From an uncultured Bacilli bacterium (GTDB taxonomy: Bacteria; Bacillota_I; Bacilli_A; RF39; UBA660): a stretch of 64,000 nucleotides of DNA. Position 1 is the stretch's first letter; each line of letters opens with the position of its first letter. The DNA lies in the NCBI GenBank assembly GCA_947627675.1, contig CANQWY010000002.1:108-64107 (forward strand), written 5' to 3'. Both the position numbers and the translations under genes were made by a program. This document shows positions 2,915 through 62,643 of this stretch, in pieces. A model generated the notes under the pieces. That model did no database searches and was not told the origin of the DNA. It saw only the letters and a list, made by a program, of their open reading frames with translations.

Positions 2915-3448
2915 TTAATTTATATTTATATATTTATTTAAAATATCTTTTACCAATAAATGATATTCTATATCTTGTTCTTTTTCATCTTCATCTATTA
3001 AACAAAGTGGTGGAAACAATACGCACCAGAAATTCTGTCCTTCGCCTTTACCTAATTTTACTACAAGAGATTCATAATTACCATCTTGATATACTACATT
3101 TTTATATTCTTTTACCGGAAAGTAATTTTCACCATAATTAATATTATAGTCTATATTAGAATTATTTTCTTTTAAAGTTTTATTTATTGTATTTTCTAAT
3201 AAAGGCATTCCTTCTTTTATAGATTTTCTTACTTCTTCTAAACTATTTTTATTATTTAATAGACTTAAAATATCTTTATTTAAATTATCTTTTACTTTTA
3301 TTTTCAAATCTTGATCTTCTTTTGAATCTGAATTTGCTATTACTCTAAAACGTATAGATTCTTTTGGTATTATAACTTCTTCTTTGTTTAAATCGTTTGC
3401 AACAAATATTATTGTCAATAAAAATATGAATACAAATATTTTTCTCAT
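2915..3448 (-). CDS. spoIIR: Stage II sporulation protein R-like secreted protein
   Basis: Signal peptide followed by an IRFRVIANSDSKEDQDLKIKVKD motif that matches the conserved SpoIIR core (RLRILANSDS) as recalled from memory. Confidence 0.5.
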   Translation of the reverse strand: MRKIFVFIFLLTIIFVANDLNKEEVIIPKESIRFRVIANSDSKEDQDLKIKVKDNLNKDILSLLNNKNSLEEVRKSIKEGMPLLENTINKTLKENNSNIDYNINYGENYFPVKEYKNVVYQDGNYESLVVKLGKGEGQNFWCVLFPPLCLIDEDEKEQDIEYHLLVKDILNKYININ

Positions 3449-5618: not shown

Positions 5619-7284
5619 TCACCAAACAACAAGAGAAAGACGTGAAGCATTTTGCTTATCGCCTGAACCAGTATTGTATATAAAGCCGAAAATACCATTT
5701 TGATTAATATAATTATAGGCACCGCCACAATCAAACCAAGGGTAGGTAGAATTTACAAACTTTTGATAATCTCCATAAAAGCCAGCTGTTCCATCGGCAT
5801 TTGTTGCATCTCCTTTGATTCCAGCACTGCTTGTATATAAATTATAATATTTTCTTTCTGGCATAGGATTAAATCCAGAATTATATACACTATTATTTAA
5901 GCTTCCCATTGTTTTCTCAAAAGCACCTCCTACTGTATCATATATTCCATAGATGGTTCCGGTTGTTGATGCTCCGGTTCCAGCTATTTCTTCATAATAC
6001 TGATGTTGACAACTATTACTTATACTAGCACTTGGGCTTCCTCCACTACAGCTTGTCTTAAATCCACTATAATTATTAGTATAAATCTCTTTATTAGCAT
6101 TTTTATAATTTGAATTTCCATATTTTCCATATTTACTTTGACTTAAGTATGCCATCGCTCCCCATTCCGTATTCTTTATCATATGCGTATCATAATTTTC
6201 TCCGCTTAATCCATAATTATTGGTACCGTTAGTACCGTTTATTTGGCTCTTTATGTTATTAAAAAATGATGAATGACTTTGATTTCTTATACTTGTTTGA
6301 TTAGGTAATGAAGTTATTGCACTTATTGCTCCAGTTAACTCGAATTTGCTTATCCAAATTCCTGGTAATTCTTTATTTTCTGAATTACTTCTGGTTGTTT
6401 CTACATCACAACTGTTGCCCCAACAAAATGATGAGGGTGTATAATAATTACTTGGCGTTGTTCCGGTGTATTTACCTGCTCCTTTTTCGGTTGTAGTCGT
6501 ATTTACAAATTTGATATCGAATGCTCCGGGTGTATTGATACTTGGTGATGATGCTCCTTCTATTTGATAGCCATATTGATCCCTTAATGTATAACTATAT
6601 CTTGGGATCCATACTAACATTAAGTTTACATCATTTAAATCTATTGTTGTTCCTGATGCTGCAGTTTTATATGTTGCTCTCTTAGATGGATCTTTTATCG
6701 TTACAGCATTAGCCCATATTTGTTTATCATAGTTATACCAGCTATTATTTGTATTTTCTTTATCTGCTTTTGCCCAACTACTTCCATTCCAAACTACCGG
6801 GATCATATCTCCTACTAACTCTGGTGCATTTGGTTCATTATTGTAATAGTCTTTTGTTTCTACTTTTAGTTTCCCTTTATAACTTCCTGTCCCTGTAAAT
6901 GTTATTGTTATTTGTACACTTTCTCCTACTTTTAAGTTCGCTTCTTCTATTGTTTTACTTGCTAAAGTCCCTGTTGTTGTCGTACCGTTCTTTGTATAAC
7001 TATAACTTATATTTACATCTTCTATATCTTCAACATACAGTCTATAACTTGCATCTTCTATTCCTCTATTTTCTATTGTAAATGTATATGTTTTATTTAA
7101 TTCGATATTTTCTTTATCTGAACCATTTACTCCATATATTCCTATATATCTTGTCCCTGTTTTTATTGTTATTTCTTTTTTTGTTTCTATACTCTTACTA
7201 TATTTGGCGTAAGTAACCCCCCCCCATTAGAACTATTGTTAGTATTAGGGGTATTACTAACAATATATCTTTTCTTTTTTCCAT
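5619..7284 (-). CDS. Phase-variable SipW-signal/camelysin(TasA)-like large secreted protein, copy A (OFF state as sequenced)
   Basis: ATG at 7284 with an AGGAG RBS. It encodes MEKRKDILLVIPLILTIVLMGGG and then reaches a stop 8 codons after a C9/G9 homopolymer (7217-7225). Removing one G fuses it in frame to the 395-aa ORF 5619..6806, giving about 554 aa. The N-domain resembles TasA/camelysin and the C-domain is Cys-containing and G/Y/N-rich. Confidence 0.7.
7217..7225. repeat. Poly-G/C homopolymeric tract (9 nt) inside the signal-peptide region of copy A
   Basis: taaCCCCCCCCCatt on the plus strand. A 9-mer G/C run is extremely unlikely by chance in roughly 25% GC DNA. Its position sets the reading frame. 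Confidence 0.85.
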
Positions 7285-7490
7285 TTTCTTTCTCCTTCTA
7301 TTTTTATATCTATATAATACACTCAATTCAAAATATTTGCAAATAAAGTACTAAAACTTTTTAATAGACATTTTACAATTTTAAACAGGAACTATCATTC
7401 CTTTAAATTAAATAATTTTACATCTTTTAAATTAAAAAAGCACCTATTAATAATTAGGTGAATTAATTATACTATATATTAGTATTAATT

Positions 7491-9790: not shown

Positions 9791-10159
9791 TTATTCTCCC
9801 TCTTGTTTTTCTATTTTAAATATATATTTTTCATGATTTAATTCATATTCTATTTGTATTTTATTATTATCCTTTAATATTTTATTTGTAAAAATTTCTA
9901 AATCTAATGAATTATTTACTTTTTTTAAAAACAGATTATTAACAGTTGTTTGATTTTCTATAAAGTTTAATACCATATATATTTCTTCATTATCTCTTTT
10001 CAAAATATTACTAGTATACTCATATAATACAAAAGTTTTTTTTGCATCATTTTCTAGATAAAAAAGAGATTTATTTTTTTCATCAACTGTTATATTTACT
10101 TTATAATTTATTTTTTCATTATAATTACCTACAGTTACAAGTGCTTTAAAATTTCTCAT
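9791..10159 (-). CDS. DUF1934 (YwiB-like) protein
   Basis: Small 122-aa protein immediately upstream of and co-oriented with argS. The ywiB-argS pairing is conserved in Firmicutes. Confidence 0.45.
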   Translation of the reverse strand: MRNFKALVTVGNYNEKINYKVNITVDEKNKSLFYLENDAKKTFVLYEYTSNILKRDNEEIYMVLNFIENQTTVNNLFLKKVNNSLDLEIFTNKILKDNNKIQIEYELNHEKYIFKIEKQEGE

Positions 10160-12309: not shown

Positions 12310-12600
12310 ATGAATAATAATTATATGTATCCTAATTATCAAGGAAATAGCATGAGAGTAATGCCCAATAGTAGAGCAAGTCAATTACAGAATCCTTATT
12401 CCGATAGTATATTATCACATTATTTAGGAAAGAAAGCTTCTTTTTATTTAACTTTTAATGATTCAAATGAATGGAGAGATACTATTTTCAAAGGTACCAT
12501 TCAAGATACTAATAGTGATTATACAATTATTTCAGATGACACTACAAATAAACCTATATTAATGTGGAATAAATTTATTGACTACATTATTTTCGATTAA
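12310..12600 (+). CDS. gerQ: GerQ-like spore coat protein
   Basis: C-terminal region YLGKKASFYLTFNDSNEWRDTIFKGTI...IISD...ILMWNKFIDYIIFD matches the conserved GerQ/YwdL C-terminal domain as recalled from memory. Good RBS. Confidence 0.5.
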   Translation: MNNNYMYPNYQGNSMRVMPNSRASQLQNPYSDSILSHYLGKKASFYLTFNDSNEWRDTIFKGTIQDTNSDYTIISDDTTNKPILMWNKFIDYIIFD

Positions 12601-34317: not shown

Positions 34318-34439
34318 AAAATTCCACCTCCAGACATAAATCTACCTTATTATAATAAAAAATAGTTTTACTTGTCAATTAAAAGTTGCTTTTTTATACC
34401 AATTTATGCTGAAGATAACATTTTTATTAGTTACTTTTG

Positions 34440-34660
34440 TAATAATTATTAACTTATATAATATAGTTATATGTTTTCCACATAATTAACATACTTGTGT
34501 ATATCTTTTTTTTAACTGTTTATAAAAAAAATTGTGGAAAATGTGGATAAGTTGTTTTTTCTTTTATGAAACAATATTATCTTTTGTGGAAAAAATTGTG
34601 AATTACTTGTGGATTAAATTTTTTATTATTTTTTTATTTATTTTTTCCACAAATTGATTT
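34440..34660. promoter_or_regulatory. oriC upstream DnaA-box cluster (rpmH-dnaA intergenic)
   Basis: Perfect TGTGGATAA at 34543-34551, plus at least 5 one-mismatch boxes (TGTGGAAAA twice, TGTGGATTA, TTTTCCACA twice) in both orientations. Confidence 0.75.
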
Positions 34661-36060: not shown

Positions 36061-36202
36061 TATGTGGATATTTTCATTAATAAACTTTTTTTTCCACAAA
36101 CTATTTTTAAAAAAAATATTTATAAAATATGAAAAAATATTGTTTTCCACATTTTCCACAGTTATAATAATAATATCTATAAAAAAGAAAGAAGGAATAT
36201 AG
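36061..36202. promoter_or_regulatory. oriC downstream DnaA boxes + AT-rich unwinding region (dnaA-dnaN intergenic)
   Basis: TGTGGATAT at 36063, TTTTCCACA three times (36090, 36144, 36153), and a run of more than 90% AT between them. Confidence 0.7.
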
Positions 36203-37333
36203 ATGAAACTAAGAATAAAAAAAGAAATATTACAAGAAGCAATAAATAAGGTATCAAAAGCTATATCAACTAAAAATTTAATCCCTGTACTTGCAGGAAT
36301 AAAATTTGAACTTAAAAAAAATAAATTAACTTTAACTGCATCTGATAATGACATTACTATTCAAACTACTATTGAAGGATATGATAATGAAGATTTTCAA
36401 GTAGAAGATGAAGGTAACATTATAGTTCAAGGAAAATATATATTAGATATAGTTCGTAAATTACCAGATAAATATATAAATATAGAAGTAATAGATGAAT
36501 TAAAAATATTAATTTATACTGAAAACAGTGAATTTAATTTAAATGGTATTAATGAAAATGAATATCCTTCTATTAATTTAGAAGAAAGTAAGAAAAAAAT
36601 TGATATCAATAGTTCAATATTTAAGGATATTGTTAATCAAACTGCTTTCGCATCTAGTAATGAAGAAACAAAACCAGTTCTTACAGGAATTAATTTTAAT
36701 ATAGTAGGTAATATTTTAGAATGCAATTCTACAGATAGTTATCGTCTAGCACGTAAAGTCATTACATTAGATAAAGCAAGTGAAGAAAATTATAATATAG
36801 TAATTCCTAGTCACAATATTGTTGAATTTACAAGAATAATGGATGAAGATATTTCAGGTATAGTAGAAGTACATATATTTAATAACAAAATTTTATTTAA
36901 ATATAAAAATGTTTTATTCCAATCAAGATTAATTAATGGAACTTATCCAAATACTGCTAATTTAATGCCAGATTCTTCATATATGATTATTACTGCTAAT
37001 TTAAGTGATTTTTATGATGTAATAGATAGAGCTAGTATTTTAACTAGTGATAAAGAAAAGAACGTTGTAACATTAGAAACTAATGGTGATACTTTAATTT
37101 TAAAATCTTCTTCTATTGAAATAGGTAGAGTAGAAGAAAAAATGAAAATAAGTAAAAATGTTGATGATGATATAAAAATTTCCTTTAGTGCTAGATATAT
37201 GATGGAAGCATTAAAAAGTTTTTCCACAGAAACTGTTGAAATTCATTATGTTGGAGAAATAAAACCAATTATTTTAAAATCAAGTCAAGAAGAAACTTTA
37301 ACCCAATTAGTTTTACCTATAAGAACATATTAA
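36203..37333 (+). CDS. dnaN: DNA polymerase III beta sliding clamp
   Basis: 376 aa, three-domain clamp. Follows dnaA. Confidence 0.95.
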   Translation: MKLRIKKEILQEAINKVSKAISTKNLIPVLAGIKFELKKNKLTLTASDNDITIQTTIEGYDNEDFQVEDEGNIIVQGKYILDIVRKLPDKYINIEVIDELKILIYTENSEFNLNGINENEYPSINLEESKKKIDINSSIFKDIVNQTAFASSNEETKPVLTGINFNIVGNILECNSTDSYRLARKVITLDKASEENYNIVIPSHNIVEFTRIMDEDISGIVEVHIFNNKILFKYKNVLFQSRLINGTYPNTANLMPDSSYMIITANLSDFYDVIDRASILTSDKEKNVVTLETNGDTLILKSSSIEIGRVEEKMKISKNVDDDIKISFSARYMMEALKSFSTETVEIHYVGEIKPIILKSSQEETLTQLVLPIRTY

Positions 37334-37470
37334 AAACAATATTTAAGAAGATCAACTAGATCTTTTTATTTTTTTAGTCTATCCTACAAAATACGATAAA
37401 TATCGACTAAGAAATATGCTATTATTTGTTTAGAAAACGAGAAAAAAGTCGTTTTCTAGGGGGAGAAAAT

Positions 37471-37938
37471 ATGAAAAAAGAATATGAAATTAATGATGGA
37501 ACATTAGCAGTTATATCTTTAAAAGATGGAAATTCTAAAATATTGGAGGATAATCAAAATTATATTGTGTCTTGTAGTAGCTTTGATATTTTAGATCATA
37601 GTTGTAAATATTTTGGCAGTAGTTATTTAGGAAGGAAAGAAGGCTCAAAATCAATGATTGGTGCTAGTTATAAATTACCTATTGTAATTGAAGACTCTCG
37701 TGATATTGTCTTTTTTCCAACATCTAGTCCTGAGGATAGTGAATGTATATGGATTGCAGTTAATAAAATTGTTACTTTTAATCAAGAAAAATATAATACA
37801 ACTAAAATCATTTTTGAAAATGGAATAGAGCTTATTGTTCCTTTATCATATAGGTCGGTTGAAAATCAAATTTATAGAGCAACTAGATTGACTTATCTAT
37901 TAAAAACTCATAAATCTAATAATAGAAATAGGATATAA
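37471..37938 (+). CDS. comK: ComK-family competence transcription factor-like protein
   Basis: Strong similarity to the B. subtilis ComK core (YEINDGTLAV..., SCKYFGSSYLGRKEGS..., KLPIVIEDSRDIVFFPTSSPEDSECIWI...) as recalled from memory. The start is taken at the second ATG behind a GGGGGAG RBS; the ORF track starts at 37426. Confidence 0.7.
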   Translation: MKKEYEINDGTLAVISLKDGNSKILEDNQNYIVSCSSFDILDHSCKYFGSSYLGRKEGSKSMIGASYKLPIVIEDSRDIVFFPTSSPEDSECIWIAVNKIVTFNQEKYNTTKIIFENGIELIVPLSYRSVENQIYRATRLTYLLKTHKSNNRNRI

Positions 37939-38232
37939 AATTGTATTTAGTTATAAAAGTAATTACTAATATTAATCGCTTAAATGCGATTTTTCTTTTA
38001 TTTTTATATATAGTTTTATAATATAAAGTAAATAGAAATCTTATTAAATAAGAAAATATGTTTGTTCAATATTTTAATGATAATTGTAAATTTATATATT
38101 TTTTTAGTAAAGATGGTATAAAATTGTTAATTTTCGTGCATAAATGCCTTTTTTATGCTATAATATAGTCGTATGTATGGGAATACTGATCTAGGGGATA
38201 GGTGATAAAATGAGTGGTTTTTAGGGTGAATA

Positions 38233-39342
38233 ATGGAAATTAGCAAAATTAATTTAATAAATTTTAGAAACTATGATAAATTAAATATTACTCTTAACAA
38301 AAATATGAATATTTTTATTGGCAGTAACGCTCAAGGAAAAACTAATATATTAGAGTCAATTATTATTCTAGCTTTAACAAAATCAAATAGAGCTAATTTA
38401 GAAAATAATTTAATAAAATTTGGAAAAGAAAAAGCTATAATAAAAGGAAAAGTTAAAGATAATAAATTATTAAGAGATTTATCTGTGGAAATTTTAGATA
38501 ATAACAAAAAACTAGTAGTTAATAAAACACAGATTAGAAAAGTATCTGAATATATTTCTAATTTAAATATAATTTCATTTATGCCTGATGATTTAGAAAT
38601 TATAAAATCATCTCCTAGTATCAGAAGAAATGTTTTAAACATACAGTTAAGTCAACTATCTAAGAAATATTTGAATACTTATAATGAATATAATAAAATT
38701 TTAAAGTCAAGAAATGAATACTTGAAAGTATTATTTACTAGTGGTCTAGCAGATAAAAAATATTTAGATATTATTACAGACAAACTTATTGAAAAAGCTA
38801 TTGTTATTTATATGATGAGAAAGGAATATATAGATTCTATAAATGAATCTATTTCTAAAATATATTTTAATATTGCGGGGGAAAATGGATTGTTTGTAAA
38901 ATATATTCCAAATATAAATATAGAAAGTTTTGATTATGATACTATTAAAAATATATTAGAAAATACTTTTAAGACCAATTACAAAAAAGAACTTAATTAT
39001 GGTATTACTTTGTTTGGACCTCATAGAGATGATATTGCCTTTATTTTAGATGAAAAAGATTTAAAACAATATGGATCTCAAGGCCAACAAAAACTTTCTA
39101 TTATATGTTATAAACTATCTGAGATTGATATATTTAAGAAAAAGTGTATGACTAAACCTGTGTTACTGTTTGATGATATTTTCAGTGAACTTGATATAAA
39201 AAAGAGAAATAAACTATTAAATTATGTTGCTACTGGTATTCAAAGTGTTATTACAACTACAGATTTAAAAAGTATTCAAAAAAAGTATTTAGCTGATGCT
39301 TATATATTTGAAGTAAATAATGGAAAGGTTATTAGAAAGTAG
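38233..39342 (+). CDS. recF: DNA replication and repair protein RecF
   Basis: Walker [13 protein letters not shown]-like architecture. 369 aa. Confidence 0.9.
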
Positions 39343-43767: not shown

Positions 43768-43840
43768 AAGTAATCATTTTTATTATATTAGTACATTTGA
43801 AATAATATAAATATTAGTTATTAGTTTACAAATAAGTAAA

Positions 43841-43885
43841 ATTGGCATACTTAAAAAGATCTAAATGGTATTTGGCATTGTCAAT
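43841..43885. repeat. Conserved ~45-bp motif, copy 1 (ATTGGCATACTTAAAAAGATCTAAATGGTATTTGGCATTGTCAA)
   Basis: About 80% identical to a second copy at 44615..44662. Function unknown. Confidence 0.4.
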
Positions 43886-44005
43886 TTTTGCAGGCTTCAA
43901 AGAAAAAACTCTTTTTAAGAGTAAATCTATTATAAACAAATGTTCTATTAAATTAAATTGATTTTCTAATTTACTTAGCAAAAATATCTTATATTTTATT
44001 TCTAT

Positions 44006-44034
44006 CTCATTATGAAAATAATTTTCATAATGAG
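44006..44034. promoter_or_regulatory. 29-bp perfect palindrome CTCATTATGAAAATAATTTTCATAATGAG (possible 7-1-7 Fur-family-like operator)
   Basis: Perfect inverted repeat. The inner TGAAAAT-A-ATTTTCA resembles the Fur-family 7-1-7 box TGATAAT-N-ATTATCA with one mismatch per half. Confidence 0.3.
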
Positions 44035-44614
44035 AAAATAGCTATAACATGGATGTATGAATTTTCATAATTTTAAATAAATATTAAATTTTTTTTATTA
44101 TGTTCCTACCACATAACATAATAAAAATCCCTGTTATGCTGGTGATAGTTGAAGAAGTGATAGCATTAGTGAAAAAACTAAATCACCTTTTGATATAATA
44201 GATAATGGTTTGCCAATCAAAATCTAAAATCAGAGGAGAATTTATTTTAGAGGCAAAAAAATGATAAAAGTTCATTTTTTCATGCGAGATGGAATTGTCA
44301 ATATCACCATGTATTATTAAATATACTCCAATATCTCTAATAAATTTTCTATATATTACCTTTCTTCTATATTTTGGTGTGAAGGCTATGTGAATATAAA
44401 GTAGTTGTAATAGTAAAAGTGCGGCATATCCAGATCATTATACATATGTTAGTAAAAATTCCACTAAAATTAGTGTATTATCTTTTATGAAATATTTAAA
44501 GGATAAGAATAGATAGATCAAATATATATGATTAAGATTTGGAAGATAAAATAAAAGATTAAAGAAGTTAGAATGAATAGACATGTTTACGGGTAAGTAA
44601 TAGTGACAAAGATA

Positions 44615-44662
44615 ATTGGTATATTAAAAAAGCTCTAAATGGTAGCTGGCACTGTCAAACTT
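44615..44662. repeat. Conserved ~45-bp motif, copy 2
   Basis: AATTGGTATATTAAAAAAGCTCTAAATGGTAGCTGGCACTGTCAAA aligns with copy 1. Confidence 0.4.
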
Positions 44663-44764
44663 TAATATAATAAATGAAATTGAGATGTTTTCATTGAATT
44701 ATATAGATATATTAATCATAATTTTATATGAATCTATAAATTATGTACAATATATAATTAAGTA

Positions 44765-45335
44765 AATTATTTCCCGGGAAATAATTTAAAACTTTTTATT
44801 TATAGAAATTTCAAATTTTAATTTTTTAATTAAAAATAATTTGATAACATTTTTTAAGAAATTAATTCATTTATAAAAATATTATCATTATTTAGTATTA
44901 ATAAAAAATATAAACTCAAACTTGATATTTTTTAAAGATTAACGTTTCACGTGAAACATTGTATTTTTTTCTTATTCTTATCATTAAATTTTTTTAGGAT
45001 ATTATTTCCCGGGAAATAATTTAAAACTTTTTATTTATAGAAATTTCAAATTTTAATTTTTTAATTAAAAATAATTTGATAATATTTTTTAAGAAATCAA
45101 TTCATTTATAAAAATATTATCATTATTTAGTATTAATAAAAAATATAAATTCAAACTTGATATTTTTTAAAGATTAACGTTTCACGTGAAACATTGTATT
45201 TTTTTCTTATTCTTATTATTAAGTTTTTTTAGGATATTATTTCCCGGGAAATAATTTAAATAATTATAATGTTTCACGTGAAACATAAAGAAATAAGCAG
45301 TTATTAAATAAAAAAAATATTTCCCGGGAAATATT
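44765..45335. repeat. 235-bp direct tandem repeat (2 full units + partial) carrying alternating NBS and parS palindromes
   Basis: NBS ATTTCCCGGGAAAT at 44769, 45004, 45239 and 45319. parS at 44943 and 45178 (CGTTTCACGTGAAACA, 15/16) and at 45270 (TGTTTCACGTGAAACA, 16/16). Unit period is exactly 235 bp with near-identical units. Confidence 0.85.
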
Positions 45336-45391
45336 TTGAAATAGATAATATAAATAAATTGCTTTTTTTAATAGTTTATTATAAAATGTAA

Positions 45392-45473
45392 TCGTGCAAT
45401 AAATTTATGTGGAAACAGGTCAGGATCGGAAGATAGCAGCCTTAACACAATAGATTTATGTGCACTTTTTTTT
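45392..45473 (+). ncRNA. ffs: Signal recognition particle RNA (small 4.5S-type SRP RNA)
   Basis: Conserved domain IV sequence CAGGUCAGGAUCGGAAGAUAGCAGCC flanked by a pairing helix (GTGCAATAAATTTATGTGG / CACAATAGATTTATGTGCAC) and a T8 run. Located next to tadA and dnaX, as in Bacillus. Confidence 0.6.
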
Positions 45474-45482
45474 GGAGGAAAT

Positions 45483-48601: not shown

Positions 48602-48787
48602 ATGAAAAAAATATTAGAAATATTAAAGAAAATAGTATTTAGTTCTTTTCTTTTATATGGTTATAATCTTATTGCTAGTAATTTTAATTTAATAATTCCA
48701 ATAAATATTATTACAATATTTATTGTTACGTTATTAGGAGCTCCTGGTTTGTTTGCATTAATACTTTTTAAAGTTACTGTTTTGTAA
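48602..48787 (+). CDS. bofA: BofA-like small membrane protein (pro-sigma-K processing inhibitor family)
   Basis: 61 aa. The C-terminal IIPINIITIFIVTLLGAPGLFALI resembles the BofA conserved C-terminus as recalled. Lies after recR, as in B. subtilis. Confidence 0.45.
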   Translation: MKKILEILKKIVFSSFLLYGYNLIASNFNLIIPINIITIFIVTLLGAPGLFALILFKVTVL

Positions 48788-56039: not shown

Positions 56040-56687
56040 ATGAGCGAATTAGATGAAATAAAAGAACAGTCATTAAATAATTATAAATTAGCAGTACAAG
56101 AAATTATAAATAATAATACATTATCTTTATTAGAAGATGATATTATGAGTTTGCTAAAAAAACCACCTCTTGATTCTATGGATATTATAAAAAATAAATT
56201 TTTATTAGTAGCAAAAAGAGAAAATATTATATTAAATACCGTTAACTTAGATAAAAAATTAGAAATATATCGTGAAAGAATAAATAAAGATATAATTTTT
56301 ATAAAGAATATAAGAATAGATATGTTATCTAAAACTGTATCAAATTTTAATCCTAAAAAAGAATTTGATACTATAAAGATAACTAAAAAAGATTTATCTT
56401 CTGTAAATAAAAAGATTAATAGCCAATTAAAGGAAAAAATAAAAATTAATATTAATAGATTTATAATAGATGAAATTATTAATATCTATAATGGCATTAA
56501 TAATATACAATATAATAAAATATACAATGAGTTATCTAAGTATTTTAGAACAGTCTATCAAAAACAATTAGTGGAAAATATAAATATTAAAATATTAGTT
56601 AAGGATACAACACTTATAAATGGAGTAAAAGAACAAGGAGAAAGATATATTTTTACTAAAACAAATTCTAGAATTAATGATTTATAA
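56040..56687 (+). CDS. Hypothetical protein
   Basis: 215-aa ORF between mfd and spoVT. No family recognised. Confidence 0.3.
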   Translation: MSELDEIKEQSLNNYKLAVQEIINNNTLSLLEDDIMSLLKKPPLDSMDIIKNKFLLVAKRENIILNTVNLDKKLEIYRERINKDIIFIKNIRIDMLSKTVSNFNPKKEFDTIKITKKDLSSVNKKINSQLKEKIKININRFIIDEIINIYNGINNIQYNKIYNELSKYFRTVYQKQLVENINIKILVKDTTLINGVKEQGERYIFTKTNSRINDL

Positions 56688-56778: not shown

Positions 56779-57309
56779 ATGAATACGACAGGAATAGTAC
56801 GCAGAATTGATGATTTAGGTAGAATAGTAATTCCTAAAGAAATAAGAAAAACATTAAGAATAAAAGAAGGAGATCCTTTAGAAATTAGTATTATTAATGA
56901 TAATATTTTATTAAAGAAATACTCTTCAGTAGAAGATTTTGAAAATATGTTTAATATTTTTATTGCAAAAATTAATGATATCATTAATAAAAATATATTA
57001 GTTTTTGATAGGGATAAAATAATATGTGCAAATGGTGATTTAAAACTTTCTAATTATAAAGATAAAAATATATCTACTAATTTATATAAAATGATGGAGG
57101 AAAGAAAAATAAATTGTATTGGGAATTCTTCATTAGAAGTTATAGAACAAGATTTGATTATAGATAATTATATATTTTCTAGCATTATTACAAATGGTGA
57201 TGTAATAGGAGGAGTTTTGATATATTCTGAAAAAAATGATATTGATGATCAAGATAAGATGTTTTTAAGTTTAATTATAAATATTTTTGTTAAATATATT
57301 GAAGAATAA
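56779..57309 (+). CDS. spoVT: Stage V sporulation protein T (AbrB-N + GAF-like)
   Basis: N-terminal AbrB/MazE swapped-hairpin domain (TGIVRRIDDLGRIVIPKEIRKTL). 176 aa. Conserved position after mfd. Confidence 0.7.
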   Translation: MNTTGIVRRIDDLGRIVIPKEIRKTLRIKEGDPLEISIINDNILLKKYSSVEDFENMFNIFIAKINDIINKNILVFDRDKIICANGDLKLSNYKDKNISTNLYKMMEERKINCIGNSSLEVIEQDLIIDNYIFSSIITNGDVIGGVLIYSEKNDIDDQDKMFLSLIINIFVKYIEE

Positions 57310-57329: not shown

Positions 57330-57600
57330 TACTGATTTAAATGTATAGAAGAAGAGGTTATTATACTGATAATTTAAGAGAGTTTCTGGTTGGTGAAAAG
57401 AAATATTATTGTTTAATAATTATGGCTTTGGAACTATTATATTGATATGTAAATATAATCGTATATAGGCGTTAACTATTTGAGTGTATAATAAAGTTAT
57501 TATAAAGTAAGGTGGTACCACGGATTTAGATTCGTCCTTATATGTTATAATGACTTTTTATTTTTATAAATAAGCATAATATTAAATTTAGATTAAAAAA
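57330..57600 (+). promoter_or_regulatory. T-box riboswitch leader of metG
   Basis: T-box consensus AGGTGGTACCACGG at 57510-57523, followed by U-rich terminator/antiterminator region. About 300-nt leader. Confidence 0.6.
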
Positions 57601-57626: not shown

Positions 57627-59147
57627 ATGAAAAAAAAATTTTATATTAGTACAGCAATTGCATATACTACATTTAAACCACATATAGGAAATACTTATGA
57701 AGTTGTTTTAGCAGATAGTATTGCTAGATTTAAAAGATTGCAAGGATATGATGTTTATTTTCAAACAGGTACTGACGAACACGGTAATAAAATTCAAGAA
57801 AAAGCCGAAGAAAAAGGCATTAGTCCTAAAGAATATGTTGATAATATTTCAAATGAAATTAAAAAAATTTGGGATTTGATGGATACTAGTTATGATAAGT
57901 TTGTAAGAACAACAGATGAACATCATGAACAAATAGTAAAAAAGATATTTAAAAAAATGTATGATAAAGGTGATATTTATAAAGGAGAATATAAAGGACT
58001 TTATTGTACTCCTTGCGAATCATTTTGGACAGAATCTCAATTAGATGATAATGGTTGTTGCCCTGATTGTGGAAGAGAAGTAAAAGAAGCAAAAGAAGAA
58101 GCCTATTTTTTTAAACTTTCTAAGTATCAAGATAGATTACTAAAATATATTGAAGAAAATCCAGATTTTATTCAACCTTCATCTAGAAAAAATGAAATGA
58201 TAAATAACTTTCTAAAACCTGGTTTACAAGATTTATGTATAACTAGAACTAGTTTTGATTGGGGAATACAAATTGATTTTGATCCTAAACATGTTATATA
58301 TGTCTGGCTTGATGCTTTAACTAATTATATTACTAACATAGGATATGATCCTGATGGATCAAGTGACGAATTTGCTAAGTATTGGCCATGTGATATCCAT
58401 TTAATAGGAAAAGATATTATTAGATTTCATGCAATTTATTGGCCTTGTTTTTTATGGAGTCTTGACTTACCTCTTCCAAAAAAAGTCTTTGGACATCCTT
58501 GGCTTTTAATGAATAATGATAAAATGAGCAAAAGTAAAGGTAATGTGATATATGCTGATTCTTTAGTTGAGAAGTATGGAGTAGATGCAGTTCGCTATTA
58601 TTTATTACATGAAATTCCATATTCAAGTGATGGAAATATTAGTTATTCCCTAATAGAAGAAAGAATTAATAGTGATCTTGCAAATATTTTAGGTAATCTA
58701 GTTCAAAGAACAATTTCGATGGGAAACAAATATTTTAATTGTATTATTGTAAATAAAGAAATAACAGACAAATTAGATTCAGAATTTATTAATAAAATAA
58801 ATCAGTTAAATGAAAAAGTTTGCTCTGATATGGATTCACTACATATTGCTAATAGTATTGATGATATATTCAATTTATTAAGAGATAGTAATAAATATAT
58901 TGATGAAACAATGCCTTGGAACCTTGCAAAAGATGACAACAAAAAAGATAGATTAGAAACTGTAATTTATAATTTATTAGAGTCTATTAGAGTATGTGGA
59001 TTATTACTTAGTTCATATATGCCTAGTACAAGTAAAAAAATTCTAAAACAATTAAATAATAATAGAAATGAGCTTAATTATGTTAAAGATAATCAATATA
59101 AATTGAATAATCCAGAACCACTTTTCATGAGGATTACAAATAAATAG
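57627..59147 (+). CDS. metG: Methionine--tRNA ligase (short form)
   Basis: Class I HIGH (KPHIGNTYEV) and KMSKS motifs. Zinc knuckle CTPCE...CPDCG. 506 aa. Confidence 0.9.
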   Translation: MKKKFYISTAIAYTTFKPHIGNTYEVVLADSIARFKRLQGYDVYFQTGTDEHGNKIQEKAEEKGISPKEYVDNISNEIKKIWDLMDTSYDKFVRTTDEHHEQIVKKIFKKMYDKGDIYKGEYKGLYCTPCESFWTESQLDDNGCCPDCGREVKEAKEEAYFFKLSKYQDRLLKYIEENPDFIQPSSRKNEMINNFLKPGLQDLCITRTSFDWGIQIDFDPKHVIYVWLDALTNYITNIGYDPDGSSDEFAKYWPCDIHLIGKDIIRFHAIYWPCFLWSLDLPLPKKVFGHPWLLMNNDKMSKSKGNVIYADSLVEKYGVDAVRYYLLHEIPYSSDGNISYSLIEERINSDLANILGNLVQRTISMGNKYFNCIIVNKEITDKLDSEFINKINQLNEKVCSDMDSLHIANSIDDIFNLLRDSNKYIDETMPWNLAKDDNKKDRLETVIYNLLESIRVCGLLLSSYMPSTSKKILKQLNNNRNELNYVKDNQYKLNNPEPLFMRITNK

Positions 59148-60873: not shown

Positions 60874-60995
60874 GATTAAATTAAGGAGAGCGTAAGGTCT
60901 TTTTTATTTTTAGAGATAATGCTAGAAGAATAAAGTACTTGAAAATAAAAAATAGATGATGTAGAATTTAAATATAAAATAGAAGGAGAAAGAAA

Positions 60996-62643
60996 ATGGA
61001 AAAAAGAAAAGATATATTGTTAGTAATACCCCTAATACTAACAATAGTTCTAATGGGGGGGGGTTACTTACGCCAAATATAGTAAGAGTATAGAGACTAA
61101 AAAGGAAATAACAATAAAAACAGGGACAAGATATATAGGAATATATGGAGAAAACAAAGAAAATATAGAATTAAATAAAGAATATACATTTACAATAGAA
61201 AACAGAGGAGCAGAAAACGCAAGTTATAGACTATATATCGAGAATATAGAAAATAGTAGTATAAGTTATAGTTATACAAAGAACGGAATAACAACAACCG
61301 GAACATTAGCAAGTAAAACAATAGATGAAGCCAATTTAAAAGTAGGAGAAAAAGTACAAATAACAATAACATTTAGCGGAAGTGGAAATTATAAAGGAAA
61401 ACTAAAAGTAGAAACAAAAGACTATATTAATGAACCAAATGCACCAGAGTTAGTAGGAGATATGATCCCAGTAACATATAATGGAACAAACTGGGTAAAA
61501 GCAGATATAAATAAAAACAATTGGTATGATTATAATAGAGGAGTCTGGGCGAATGCTGTAACGATAAAAGATGCAAATAAAAGAGCAACATACAAAAGTG
61601 CTCAAGCAGGAACACTAATAGATTTAAGTTATGTAAACTTAATGTTAGTATGGATCCCAAGATACTCATATACATTAAGACAATCATATGGATATCAAAT
61701 AGATGGAGCATCAACCCCAAGCATTAATACACCCGGAGCATTTGATATCAAATTTGTAAAGACAAGTACAACCGAAATGGGAAGCGGAAAATATAGTGGA
61801 GAAGAACCAACAGGCTATTTTACACCCTCATCATTTTGTTGGGGCAACAGTTGTGATGTAGAGTCGACGAGAGGGAGCTCAGGAAATACAGAATTATCTG
61901 GAATCTGGATAAGTAAGTTTGAGCTTACTGGAACAATAAGTGTAATAACATCAAAACCAAATGAAACAAGTATAACAAATCAAAGCACATCTTCGTTCTT
62001 TAATGCTATAAAAACACAGATAAATGGAAGTAGTGGAACAACAAATTATGGATTAAGCGGAGAAAATTACGATACGCATATGATAAAGAATACGGAATGG
62101 GGAGCAATGGCATATTTAAGTCAAAGTAAATATGGAAAATATGGTAATTCAAATTATACAGGAGCAAATAAAGAGATTTACATAAACAATTATAGTGGTT
62201 ATAAAACAGGATGTAGTGGAGGAAGTCCAAGTGCTAGTCAAAGTTCTAGTTGCCAATATACTTATAATATAGAAACAAATGGAACCGGAGCCAGTACTAC
62301 TGGAACAATATATGGAATATATGATACATCAGGAGGAGCTTATGAAAGAGTGATGGGGAACTTTAATAATGTGCTACCAGCTTCTAGATTTAATTCCATG
62401 CCAGAAAGAAAATATTATAATTTATATACAGGAACAATAGGAATCAAAGGAGATGCAATAAATGCAGATGGAACGGCAGGTTTTTATGGAGATTATCAAA
62501 TATTTGTAACTTCTTCTCAACCTTGGTTCCAACGTGGCGGTTACTATGGCAATGGTGTTATCGCGGGCGTCTTCAGCTTCTACTACAGCAATGGCGATGC
62601 TATCCACTACCGCGGTTCACGCTTTGCTATTTCTACTTGGTAA
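60996..62643 (+). CDS. Phase-variable SipW-signal/camelysin(TasA)-like large secreted protein, copy B (OFF state as sequenced)
   Basis: ATG 60996 with AGGAG RBS, then MEKRKDILLVIPLILTIVLMGGG, a G9 tract (61055-61063) and a stop 8 codons later. With G8 it reads through LMGGVTYAKYSKS... into ORF 61462..62643, giving about 548 aa. It is 90-95% identical at the nucleotide level to copy A over the 5' 150 nt. Confidence 0.7.
61055..61063. repeat. Poly-G homopolymeric tract (9 nt) in the signal-peptide GG(G) motif of copy B
   Basis: taatGGGGGGGGGttac. Identical in length and context to the copy A tract. Confidence 0.85.

Follow-up and report, generated by a model that had tools for sequence, protein, structure and literature searches.

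The window analysed here, a stretch of 64,000 nucleotides (64 kb) from an uncultured Bacilli genome, carries a short gene of the ComK family close to the replication origin oriC, with dnaN on one side and recF on the other. We suggest that this gene, called comK below, encodes a vertically inherited, origin-proximal and ComK2-like DNA-binding regulator that is probably controlled by Spo0A, an account in which we have somewhat better than even confidence. What is new is that a known regulator family occurs in a distinct short form, at an origin-proximal position that is fixed in the clade, and with a promoter that appears to be of the Spo0A type. The coordinates of all features are collected in Table 1.

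ComK in the slot between dnaN and recF

The product of the gene matches the Pfam family PF06338 (ComK) over profile positions 2-149 of 152, with an E-value of 2.5e-43 and 147.9 bits, the gathering cut-off of the family being 22.3 bits. The profile search thus agrees with the family proposed in the initial annotation, and the alignment with the core of B. subtilis ComK that had been read from the letters is recovered by BLASTP (39% identity over 139 residues, E 3e-34). The B. subtilis query sequence is corroborated by a near-identical database protein (P0255) and by a published C-terminal peptide. The two proteins have the motifs SC.(Y/F)FGSSY.GRK, FFPT.S and ENQ.YR in common, and in the alignment these regions appear (window/B. 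subtilis) as SCKYFGSSYLGRK/SCRFFGSSYAGRK, FFPTSS/LFPTLS and ENQIYRATRL/ENQVYRTAWL. Residues C45, G49 and P70 are invariant in 78 ComK homologues. A collection clustered at 90% holds 442 homologues, nearly all of them 145-156 residues long, and an exhaustive search gave 1166 cluster representatives at E <= 1e-3. The nearest genomes are uncultured Bacilli metagenome-assembled genomes and 'Clostridium sp. CAG:417'. The window protein has no match in NCBIfam, and a sequence search of the PDB gave none either. These comparisons show what is, as far as sequence can tell, a genuine gene for a ComK-family DNA-binding regulator under purifying selection.

The genes around comK are dnaN upstream and recF downstream, followed by gyrB and gyrA, and domain matches to both neighbours settle this position. 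A change of sign in the GC skew falls at 32-36 kb of the window, and DnaA-box clusters lie upstream of dnaA and between dnaA and dnaN; the distance from comK to this oriC, which has the bipartite form typical of Firmicutes, is therefore about 1.3 kb. In the canonical order dnaA-dnaN-yaaA-recF-gyrB, which is indeed documented for S. aureus (Staphylococcus) and Planococcus, this slot belongs to the S4-domain gene yaaA (rlbA). The window comK has the same slot and orientation as yaaA but no sequence or fold relationship to it. The reported absence of yaaA stands, as no S4 domain was found in the scanned open reading frames of at least 90 residues or in the non-overlapping ones of at least 45 residues in the window, degraded pseudogene remnants not being searched for. 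The 294-bp spacer between comK and recF holds open reading frames of at most 39 residues and no S4-domain YaaA/RlbA of about 70 residues. Likewise, remB was not found in the window, and recF runs straight into gyrB. In the papers that were searched we found no description of comK between dnaN and recF, and the only three that name all of these genes are unrelated.

The genome data used here are the 64-kb window and flanks of 3.5-6 kb in its relatives. The gene context was looked up for ComK homologues with 100, 74, 67, 60, 52, 51, 48, 37, 33 and 31% identity, and at every one of them it reads rnpA-rpmH <> dnaA-dnaN-ComK-recF-gyrB-gyrA. A locus survey then covered the best 80 of 175 related metagenomic loci, found with a 19-sequence alignment (A2) and one N-terminal peptide pattern; an alignment of 78 sequences (A1) had too much diversity to serve as a seed for this search. 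The survey is biased to closer relatives, and the most distant members are sampled by the single look-ups.

The surveyed loci clearly share one arrangement. The gene directly upstream of comK, on the same strand and at a gap of 103-187 bp, is dnaN in 77 of the 79 loci with enough upstream sequence, and recF lies directly downstream in 77 of the 79 with enough downstream sequence. Neither yaaA nor remB was found in any of these best 80 of 175 relatives. In the two exceptions (L092 and L093) a short ComK of a similar kind follows ligA, and its promoter features are broadly alike. The mean identity to the window is 51% for ComK, 74% for DnaN and 60% for RecF, and the order dnaN-comK-recF is kept even where DnaN identity is only 47-60%.

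The clade consists of uncultured, AT-rich gut and rumen Bacilli with sporulation genes, in which ComK occupies the slot in place of yaaA and remB is also missing. The comparison shows that comK has been inherited vertically, and that the slot next to oriC has been held throughout the clade. The initial annotation had called the gene inserted, but a local event does not fit an arrangement that is fixed on both sides across a broad uncultured clade. It had also called the arrangement unusual; this is right relative to model Bacilli and wrong within the lineage, where dnaN-comK-recF is the normal order. Relatives that retain yaaA here and carry comK elsewhere did not turn up in the synteny comparison.

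Transcription signals and phased boxes upstream of comK

The transcription signals of comK were compared with 69 distinct dnaN-comK spacers from relatives, and their layout is fixed. Folding of the spacer in the window gives a z-score of -3.96 (RNAfold), and a terminator-like hairpin with a T-run follows dnaN in 63 of the 69 spacers against 26.7 in shuffled sequences. A consensus terminator scan, which found 2 sites against 0.2 expected, did not flag this hairpin because it contains fewer than three G-C pairs and the scan needs at least three. The same scan does find the intrinsic terminator downstream of comK.

In many relatives (L018, L023, L026, L027, L034, L055, L069 and others) the hairpin after dnaN is built from DnaA-box sequence, with TTATCCACA paired to TGTGGAT. 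At least one DnaA-box-like sequence with at most one mismatch occurs in the terminator region of 17/69 spacers, compared with 3.25 in shuffles. The spacer of the window itself has no DnaA box at this threshold.

The putative promoter has an extended -10 element (TGnTAnnnT), whose TG extension is present in 32 of 58 relatives. Downstream of it a stem-loop starts near the expected transcription start and ends just before the Shine-Dalgarno sequence. A hairpin of at least 6 bp that ends at most 6 nt before the Shine-Dalgarno sequence is found in 47/69 leaders, while dinucleotide shuffles give 9.7 +/- 2.8. The stems vary in a compensatory manner (GAAAGC/GCUUUC, GAAAAC/GUUUUC, GGAAGC/GCUUCC and others) and the loops have 3-10 nt. 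We also considered the arms (TGAAAGC...GCTTTCA) as a cre-like or other protein-operator palindrome, which is unlikely; since the loop length varies, an RNA stem-loop fits better than an operator of fixed spacing. Stem-loops at the 5' end of Bacillus mRNAs can act as mRNA stabilisers, and we read the comK stem-loop as a probable stabiliser that leaves the Shine-Dalgarno sequence free. No Rfam family matches the leader. The hexamers AGGGGG and GGGGGA are enriched 54- to 60-fold in the spacers of relatives (AGGGGG 60-fold), and in the window the ATG start of comK lies 5 nt 3' of the Shine-Dalgarno sequence GGGGGAG.

Judged by these signals, comK is a separate transcription unit, with the dnaN terminator before it, an extended -10 promoter without a -35 element, a leader of about 35-45 nt and a terminator of its own. 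The upstream terminator and the hairpin that the initial annotation had assigned to the gene are both recovered, the first by folding, and its own transcription signals extend to the downstream terminator.

Upstream of the -10 element the relatives have two or three direct repeats of TTCGACA. The core TCGACA is 45-fold enriched in the spacers over the rest of the loci, and the distance from one box to the next is exactly 10 bp in 26 cases and exactly 20 bp in 21. At least one box in this orientation, with at most one mismatch, is present in 62/69 spacers against 7 in shuffles. Strict 10-bp tandems are seen in 22/69 and three boxes in 15, where shuffles give 0.02, and only four tandem pairs occur elsewhere in the 758 kb of remaining locus sequence. 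The window has three degenerate boxes at the same position as the clean boxes of its relatives, and no second phased triple of this kind occurs in the 64 kb, whichever strand is read (0.33 per window in shuffles). The distance from the proximal box to the -10 element is most often 11 nt (31/58 loci) and only twice 17-18 nt. The boxes are therefore not -35 hexamers, which would lie 16-18 nt away and were rejected on this ground; instead they cover part of the -35 region.

Read on the other strand, TTCGACA becomes TGTCGAA, the core of the Spo0A binding site or 0A box (PMC3485338, PMC2731898), and two 0A boxes 3 bp apart, i.e. with a 10-bp period, are a known Spo0A site (PMC2731898). Promoters that are activated by Spo0A and read by sigma-A have tandem TGTCGAA boxes with this period; the clade has the same boxes on the opposite strand. 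In those promoters the boxes also lie over the -35 region without a -35 hexamer, as in the clade, whereas the boxes of the window are degenerate. The comK promoter of B. subtilis contains five 7-bp boxes to which phosphorylated Spo0A (Spo0A~P) binds directly, and in this way Spo0A~P gates competence (PMC3297582). Binding of Spo0A~P would be a feature that the window comK promoter shares with it; the B. subtilis promoter has scattered A and R sites, whereas the window promoter has three phased boxes over the -35 region.

The window encodes four sporulation-specific proteins (SpoIIR, GerQ, BofA and SpoVT), while its origin region otherwise resembles that of B. subtilis (soj/spo0J/noc, gidAB, trmE, jag, yidC, rnpA, rpmH, then dnaA ... 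dnaX, ybaB, recR, holB, pth, mfd). From its gene content this AT-rich lineage (25% GC) looks like a present or recent endospore former. As a general rule endospore formers encode Spo0A, which is therefore expected in the lineage.

The boxes might not be Spo0A sites at all and instead serve autoregulation by the short ComK, another regulator, or a DnaA-related array. This is unlikely in our view, and the evidence points both ways. B. subtilis ComK activates its own promoter (PMC3297582), but its known boxes (AAAA-N5-TTTT) look different from TTCGACA. The ComK fold weakly resembles LytTR domains (a non-significant Foldseek match, see also PMC13232269), which bind direct repeats, but these repeats have a period of about 21 bp. 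DnaA-box-like sequences lie nearby in the spacers counted above, but TTTCGACA is unlike the window's own DnaA boxes (TTTTCCACA or TTATCCACA). Finally, spo0A is not among the genes of the 64-kb window and the short flanks of the relatives. The 7-mer of the relatives is nevertheless the exact published 0A core, and its 10-bp phasing is the published tandem arrangement. Control of comK by Spo0A is thus the reading that these sequences best support for the clade, and it holds less strongly for the window genome.

In two relatives, L043 (about position 619) and L045 (about 600), a TTCGACA box on the minus strand adjoins a DnaA-like box (ATTCGACACTTTTCCACA) upstream of dnaA. These recall the 0A boxes that are present at the B. 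subtilis origin (PMC2731898).

The leader of recF on the other side of comK (38156-38232; spacers L001-L096) is conserved at the nucleotide level far above the flanking proteins. It consists of TGnTATAAT, then GTATGTATAGGAATAC, then TAGGGGATAGGTGAT. In relatives it carries a perfect Shine-Dalgarno sequence and an 8-codon mini-ORF (a short open reading frame, M-G/S-L-L/F-x-G-F-K). In 40 of about 66 loci the stop codon of the mini-ORF and the start codon of recF share bases (ATGA/TTGA), so that the two may be translationally coupled. No supported RNA structure and no Rfam match were found for this leader. It can be speculated that it is a remnant of the start region of the lost yaaA.

The short form and its possible roles

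An AlphaFold2 model of the window ComK, built with 78 homologues, is a single domain with a pLDDT (predicted local distance difference test) of 95.1 and a pTM (predicted template modelling score) of 0.89, in which a beta-rich core is accompanied by two helices and a long C-terminal helix. Foldseek gives nothing at E <= 1e-3 against the PDB. The recurring weak matches are LytTR domains (3d6w, AgrA and ComE), with probabilities of 0.9-1.0 but E-values of at least 0.012, which are not significant. A LytTR resemblance of ComK models has also been remarked in a 2026 preprint (PMC13232269).

After the conserved core, 15 residues remain in the window ComK against 42 in B. subtilis ComK. The tail length is bimodal across the family, and the nearest neighbour is also short for 93 of 96 short forms. 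In B. subtilis the tail holds the MecA recognition sequence FMLYPK... at the C-terminus (PMC8138137), and an LYPK/LYPR motif is absent from all 270 homologues collected. B. subtilis ComK deltaC25, which lacks the last 25 residues, is reported to keep DNA binding and to lose activation of comGA (PMC3128618). B. cereus ComK2, in which 22 C-terminal residues are naturally absent, lowers comG expression (PMC3128618). It is thus clear that the window ComK is a short form, in which the core fold is complete and the tail of about 40 residues, which in B. subtilis carries the MecA/ClpCP degron and the activation function, is absent.

The window protein is also about 37 residues shorter overall than B. 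subtilis ComK, as a decaying, truncated pseudogene would be. We reject this and give it hardly any chance. Hundreds of homologues belong to the same length class and keep the core residues, the model is compact and confidently predicted, and the promoter, the Shine-Dalgarno sequence and the terminator of comK are all conserved.

By analogy with deltaC25 and ComK2, the short ComK probably binds DNA and lies outside MecA/ClpCP control of the B. subtilis style. It would then either activate by a different route or act as a repressor or anti-repressor. Neofunctionalisation, which the initial annotation had raised, is plausible because the activation and degron tail is absent.

We suggest the following scheme. 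At the exit from exponential growth, Spo0A~P would bind the phased 0A-type boxes over the -35 region and switch comK on. The 5' stem-loop and the strong Shine-Dalgarno sequence would make the comK mRNA stable and well translated, so that control would be mainly transcriptional and not by MecA/ClpCP proteolysis. The short ComK would bind DNA and control a competence or K-state-like regulon; as it has no activation tail, it may, like ComK2, do so through repression or anti-repression. More speculatively, the location within about 2-3 kb of oriC would tie the copy number of comK to replication initiation and replication stress.

Several observations weigh against this scheme. Nowhere in the 64-kb window is there an exact copy of TTCGACA; its boxes have two mismatches each, and of these the proximal one alone retains the full set of three base contacts that are reported as critical. 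As ComK diverges more quickly than the proteins encoded on either side of it, it may also recognise other DNA sequences than B. subtilis ComK does. The competence-machinery genes comG, comE, comF, dprA and ssbB are not in the 64-kb window. K-boxes, which are AAAA-N5-TTTT pairs (type II being AAAA-N5-TTTT-N18-AAAA-N5-TTTT), were searched for with at most one mismatch, and neither type I nor type II is present in 37334-37470 or upstream of any obvious target. Finally, as the dnaA-gyrA cluster is stable by nature, a conserved position is not enough to demonstrate that the position itself has been selected.

Over the whole window the type I pattern was matched once (0.46 expected) and the type II pattern four times (0.4 expected), in no case upstream of comK. 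These numbers are too thin to interpret, and the K-box check proposed with the initial annotation, run within the window, gave nothing usable. The type II matches include 34381-34424 in the rpmH-dnaA (oriC) spacer, 10031-10074 and 56159-56233, and A/T tracts may inflate the count.

The short ComK may no longer be a competence regulator, acting instead as a ComK2-like repressor or in another programme, for example on sporulation or cell-cycle genes, recF-gyrBA or oriC. We regard this as possible but rather unlikely. The absent tail would agree with it, as would the binding without activation of deltaC25 and the lowered comG expression with ComK2 (PMC3128618). The fast divergence of ComK, the unusually conserved recF leader next to it and the K-box-like match in the rpmH-dnaA spacer, one of the four type II matches, point the same way. 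However, the excess of K-boxes is small, and A/T tracts are not kept in the dinucleotide shuffles used for the comparison; the core residues common with B. subtilis ComK are intact; and every ComK seen in the clade is a short form, so that the short ComK may be its competence regulator with another mode of activation.

For the position next to oriC there is a precedent in S. pneumoniae, where comAB (8 degrees) and comCDE (-1 degrees) lie near oriC; under replication stress their gene dosage increases and competence is triggered (PMC5034851). By this analogy the position of comK may be functionally linked to replication. A historical accident is about as likely as this dosage reading and fits everything shown: yaaA would have been replaced once in an ancestor, the result frozen by the stability of dnaA-dnaN-recF-gyrBA, and comK would be an ordinary competence regulator. 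We consider this quite possible. With its own terminators, promoter and leader, comK is not part of the dnaN or recF transcript. The short ComK genes after ligA in L092 and L093 have similar promoter features, so a short comK can function elsewhere, and the neighbouring genes are universally syntenic in Bacilli. On the other side, the linkage is kept, with no interposed gene, where DnaN identity is about 47-60% and ComK identity about 31-37%, and the pneumococcal precedent for a functional proximity to oriC exists; neither point is decisive.

A more far-reaching idea is that a ComK-derived developmental switch has been wired into oriC. Such a switch would be induced by Spo0A~P and dosed by initiation, would act on oriC and/or the recF-gyrBA leader, would link the state of replication with DNA uptake, DNA repair or the onset of sporulation, and would have displaced yaaA and remB for that reason. 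We consider this improbable.

Other features of the window and comparison with known systems

Table 1. Features of the comK region and sporulation genes of the 64-kb window (positions from the first letter of the window; a point marks features without strand).
Feature	Position	Strand	Details and basis
comK, short ComK-family gene	37471..37938	+	155 aa; Pfam ComK, homologues, AlphaFold2 model
DnaA-box cluster upstream of dnaA (oriC, left part)	34470..34655	.	six matches to TTATCCACA, <=1 mismatch, at 34474-34643
DnaA-box cluster between dnaA and dnaN (oriC, right part)	36063..36160	.	four boxes, <=1 mismatch, at 36071-36152
dnaN (sliding clamp)	36203..37333	+	PF00712, PF02767 and PF02768 on the identical gene in L004
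AU-rich terminator-like hairpin and T7 run after dnaN	37344..37375	+	10-bp stem 37344-37368; RNAfold and own scan
Three 10-bp-phased degenerate TTCGACA boxes	37382..37408	+	TCCTACA, TACGATA, ATCGACT; 2 mismatches each
Extended -10 TGcTATTAT of comK promoter (putative)	37417..37425	+	11 nt after proximal box
comK leader 5' stem-loop	37431..37458	+	10 bp, 8-nt loop, ends 1 nt before Shine-Dalgarno; dG -11.6 kcal/mol, z -4.0
Shine-Dalgarno GGGGGAG	37459..37465	+	read from sequence
Intrinsic terminator of comK	37974..38001	+	consensus scan (37974-37991 and T-run); 6-bp stem, 3 G-C pairs
Extended -10 TGcTATAAT of recF-gyrBA promoter (putative)	38156..38164	+	TGnTATAAT at same position in nearly all relatives
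Conserved recF leader	38171..38232	+	Shine-Dalgarno AGGTGAT (38200-38206), mini-ORF MSGF(stop) (38210-38224)
recF, gyrB directly after, no remB	38233..39342	+	PF02463 (SMC_N/RecF) match, map of open reading frames
SpoIIR	2915-3448	-	sporulation gene
GerQ	12310-12600	+	sporulation gene
BofA	48602-48787	+	sporulation gene
SpoVT	56779-57309	+	sporulation gene

Some further features of the window stand apart from comK. An inverted repeat of about 1.6 kb (5715-7304 and 60976-62547) is 80-98% complementary, with a 179-nt core at 98%, and is centred at about 34.1 kb, on oriC. Its two arms hold paralogous open reading frames of about 395 residues, one in each, without a Pfam match (5619-6806 on the minus strand, 61462-62643 on the plus strand). 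Between gyrA and the signal recognition particle RNA, 1.7 kb (43768-45482) are without a plausible open reading frame. Here a 235-bp unit is duplicated in tandem (44758-45227, 97% identical) and followed by part of a third copy (45305-45387), with the palindrome ATTTCCCGGGAAAT in each copy. A T-box leader (RF00230, 100 bits) at 57337-57542, upstream of the methionyl-tRNA synthetase gene at 57627-59147, is ordinary.

Compared with B. subtilis ComK, the window comK lies at oriC between dnaN and recF, and it lacks the tail described above. B. subtilis ComK further autoregulates through a K-box, whereas no K-box is seen in the promoter of the window comK. Judged by sequence, the window protein therefore differs from the canonical master activator type in two features, the C-terminal tail and the K-box in its own promoter.

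By analogy the closest functional counterpart appears to be ComK2 of B. cereus, and more loosely ComK2 of S. aureus, as in both proteins the ComK core occurs without the C-terminal activation region. The likeness has its limits. In B. cereus, ComK2 is a second copy beside a full-length ComK1, whereas the loci of the clade show no ComK type other than the short one, a second copy elsewhere being possible. The truncation is also larger in the window ComK, about 27 residues compared with the 22 absent from ComK2.

S. pneumoniae resembles the clade in that its early competence regulators comCDE and comAB lie next to the origin (PMC5034851). However, the pneumococcal proteins, a two-component system and a peptide pheromone, are unrelated to ComK, and the dosage effect there needs a positive feedback loop.

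For practical use, the order dnaN-comK-recF without yaaA and remB is a simple synteny marker for the clade. The biology of ComK is known almost entirely from Bacillus and Staphylococcus, and here a distinct short ComK is found in a large uncultured gut and rumen lineage with sporulation genes. If the proposed scheme is true, a competence or K-state-like programme would be placed under the sporulation phosphorelay and an origin-proximal dosage, and not under regulated proteolysis. It would then be a second, independent case of origin-linked competence control beside the pneumococcal comCDE, and it would bear on horizontal gene transfer in gut communities.

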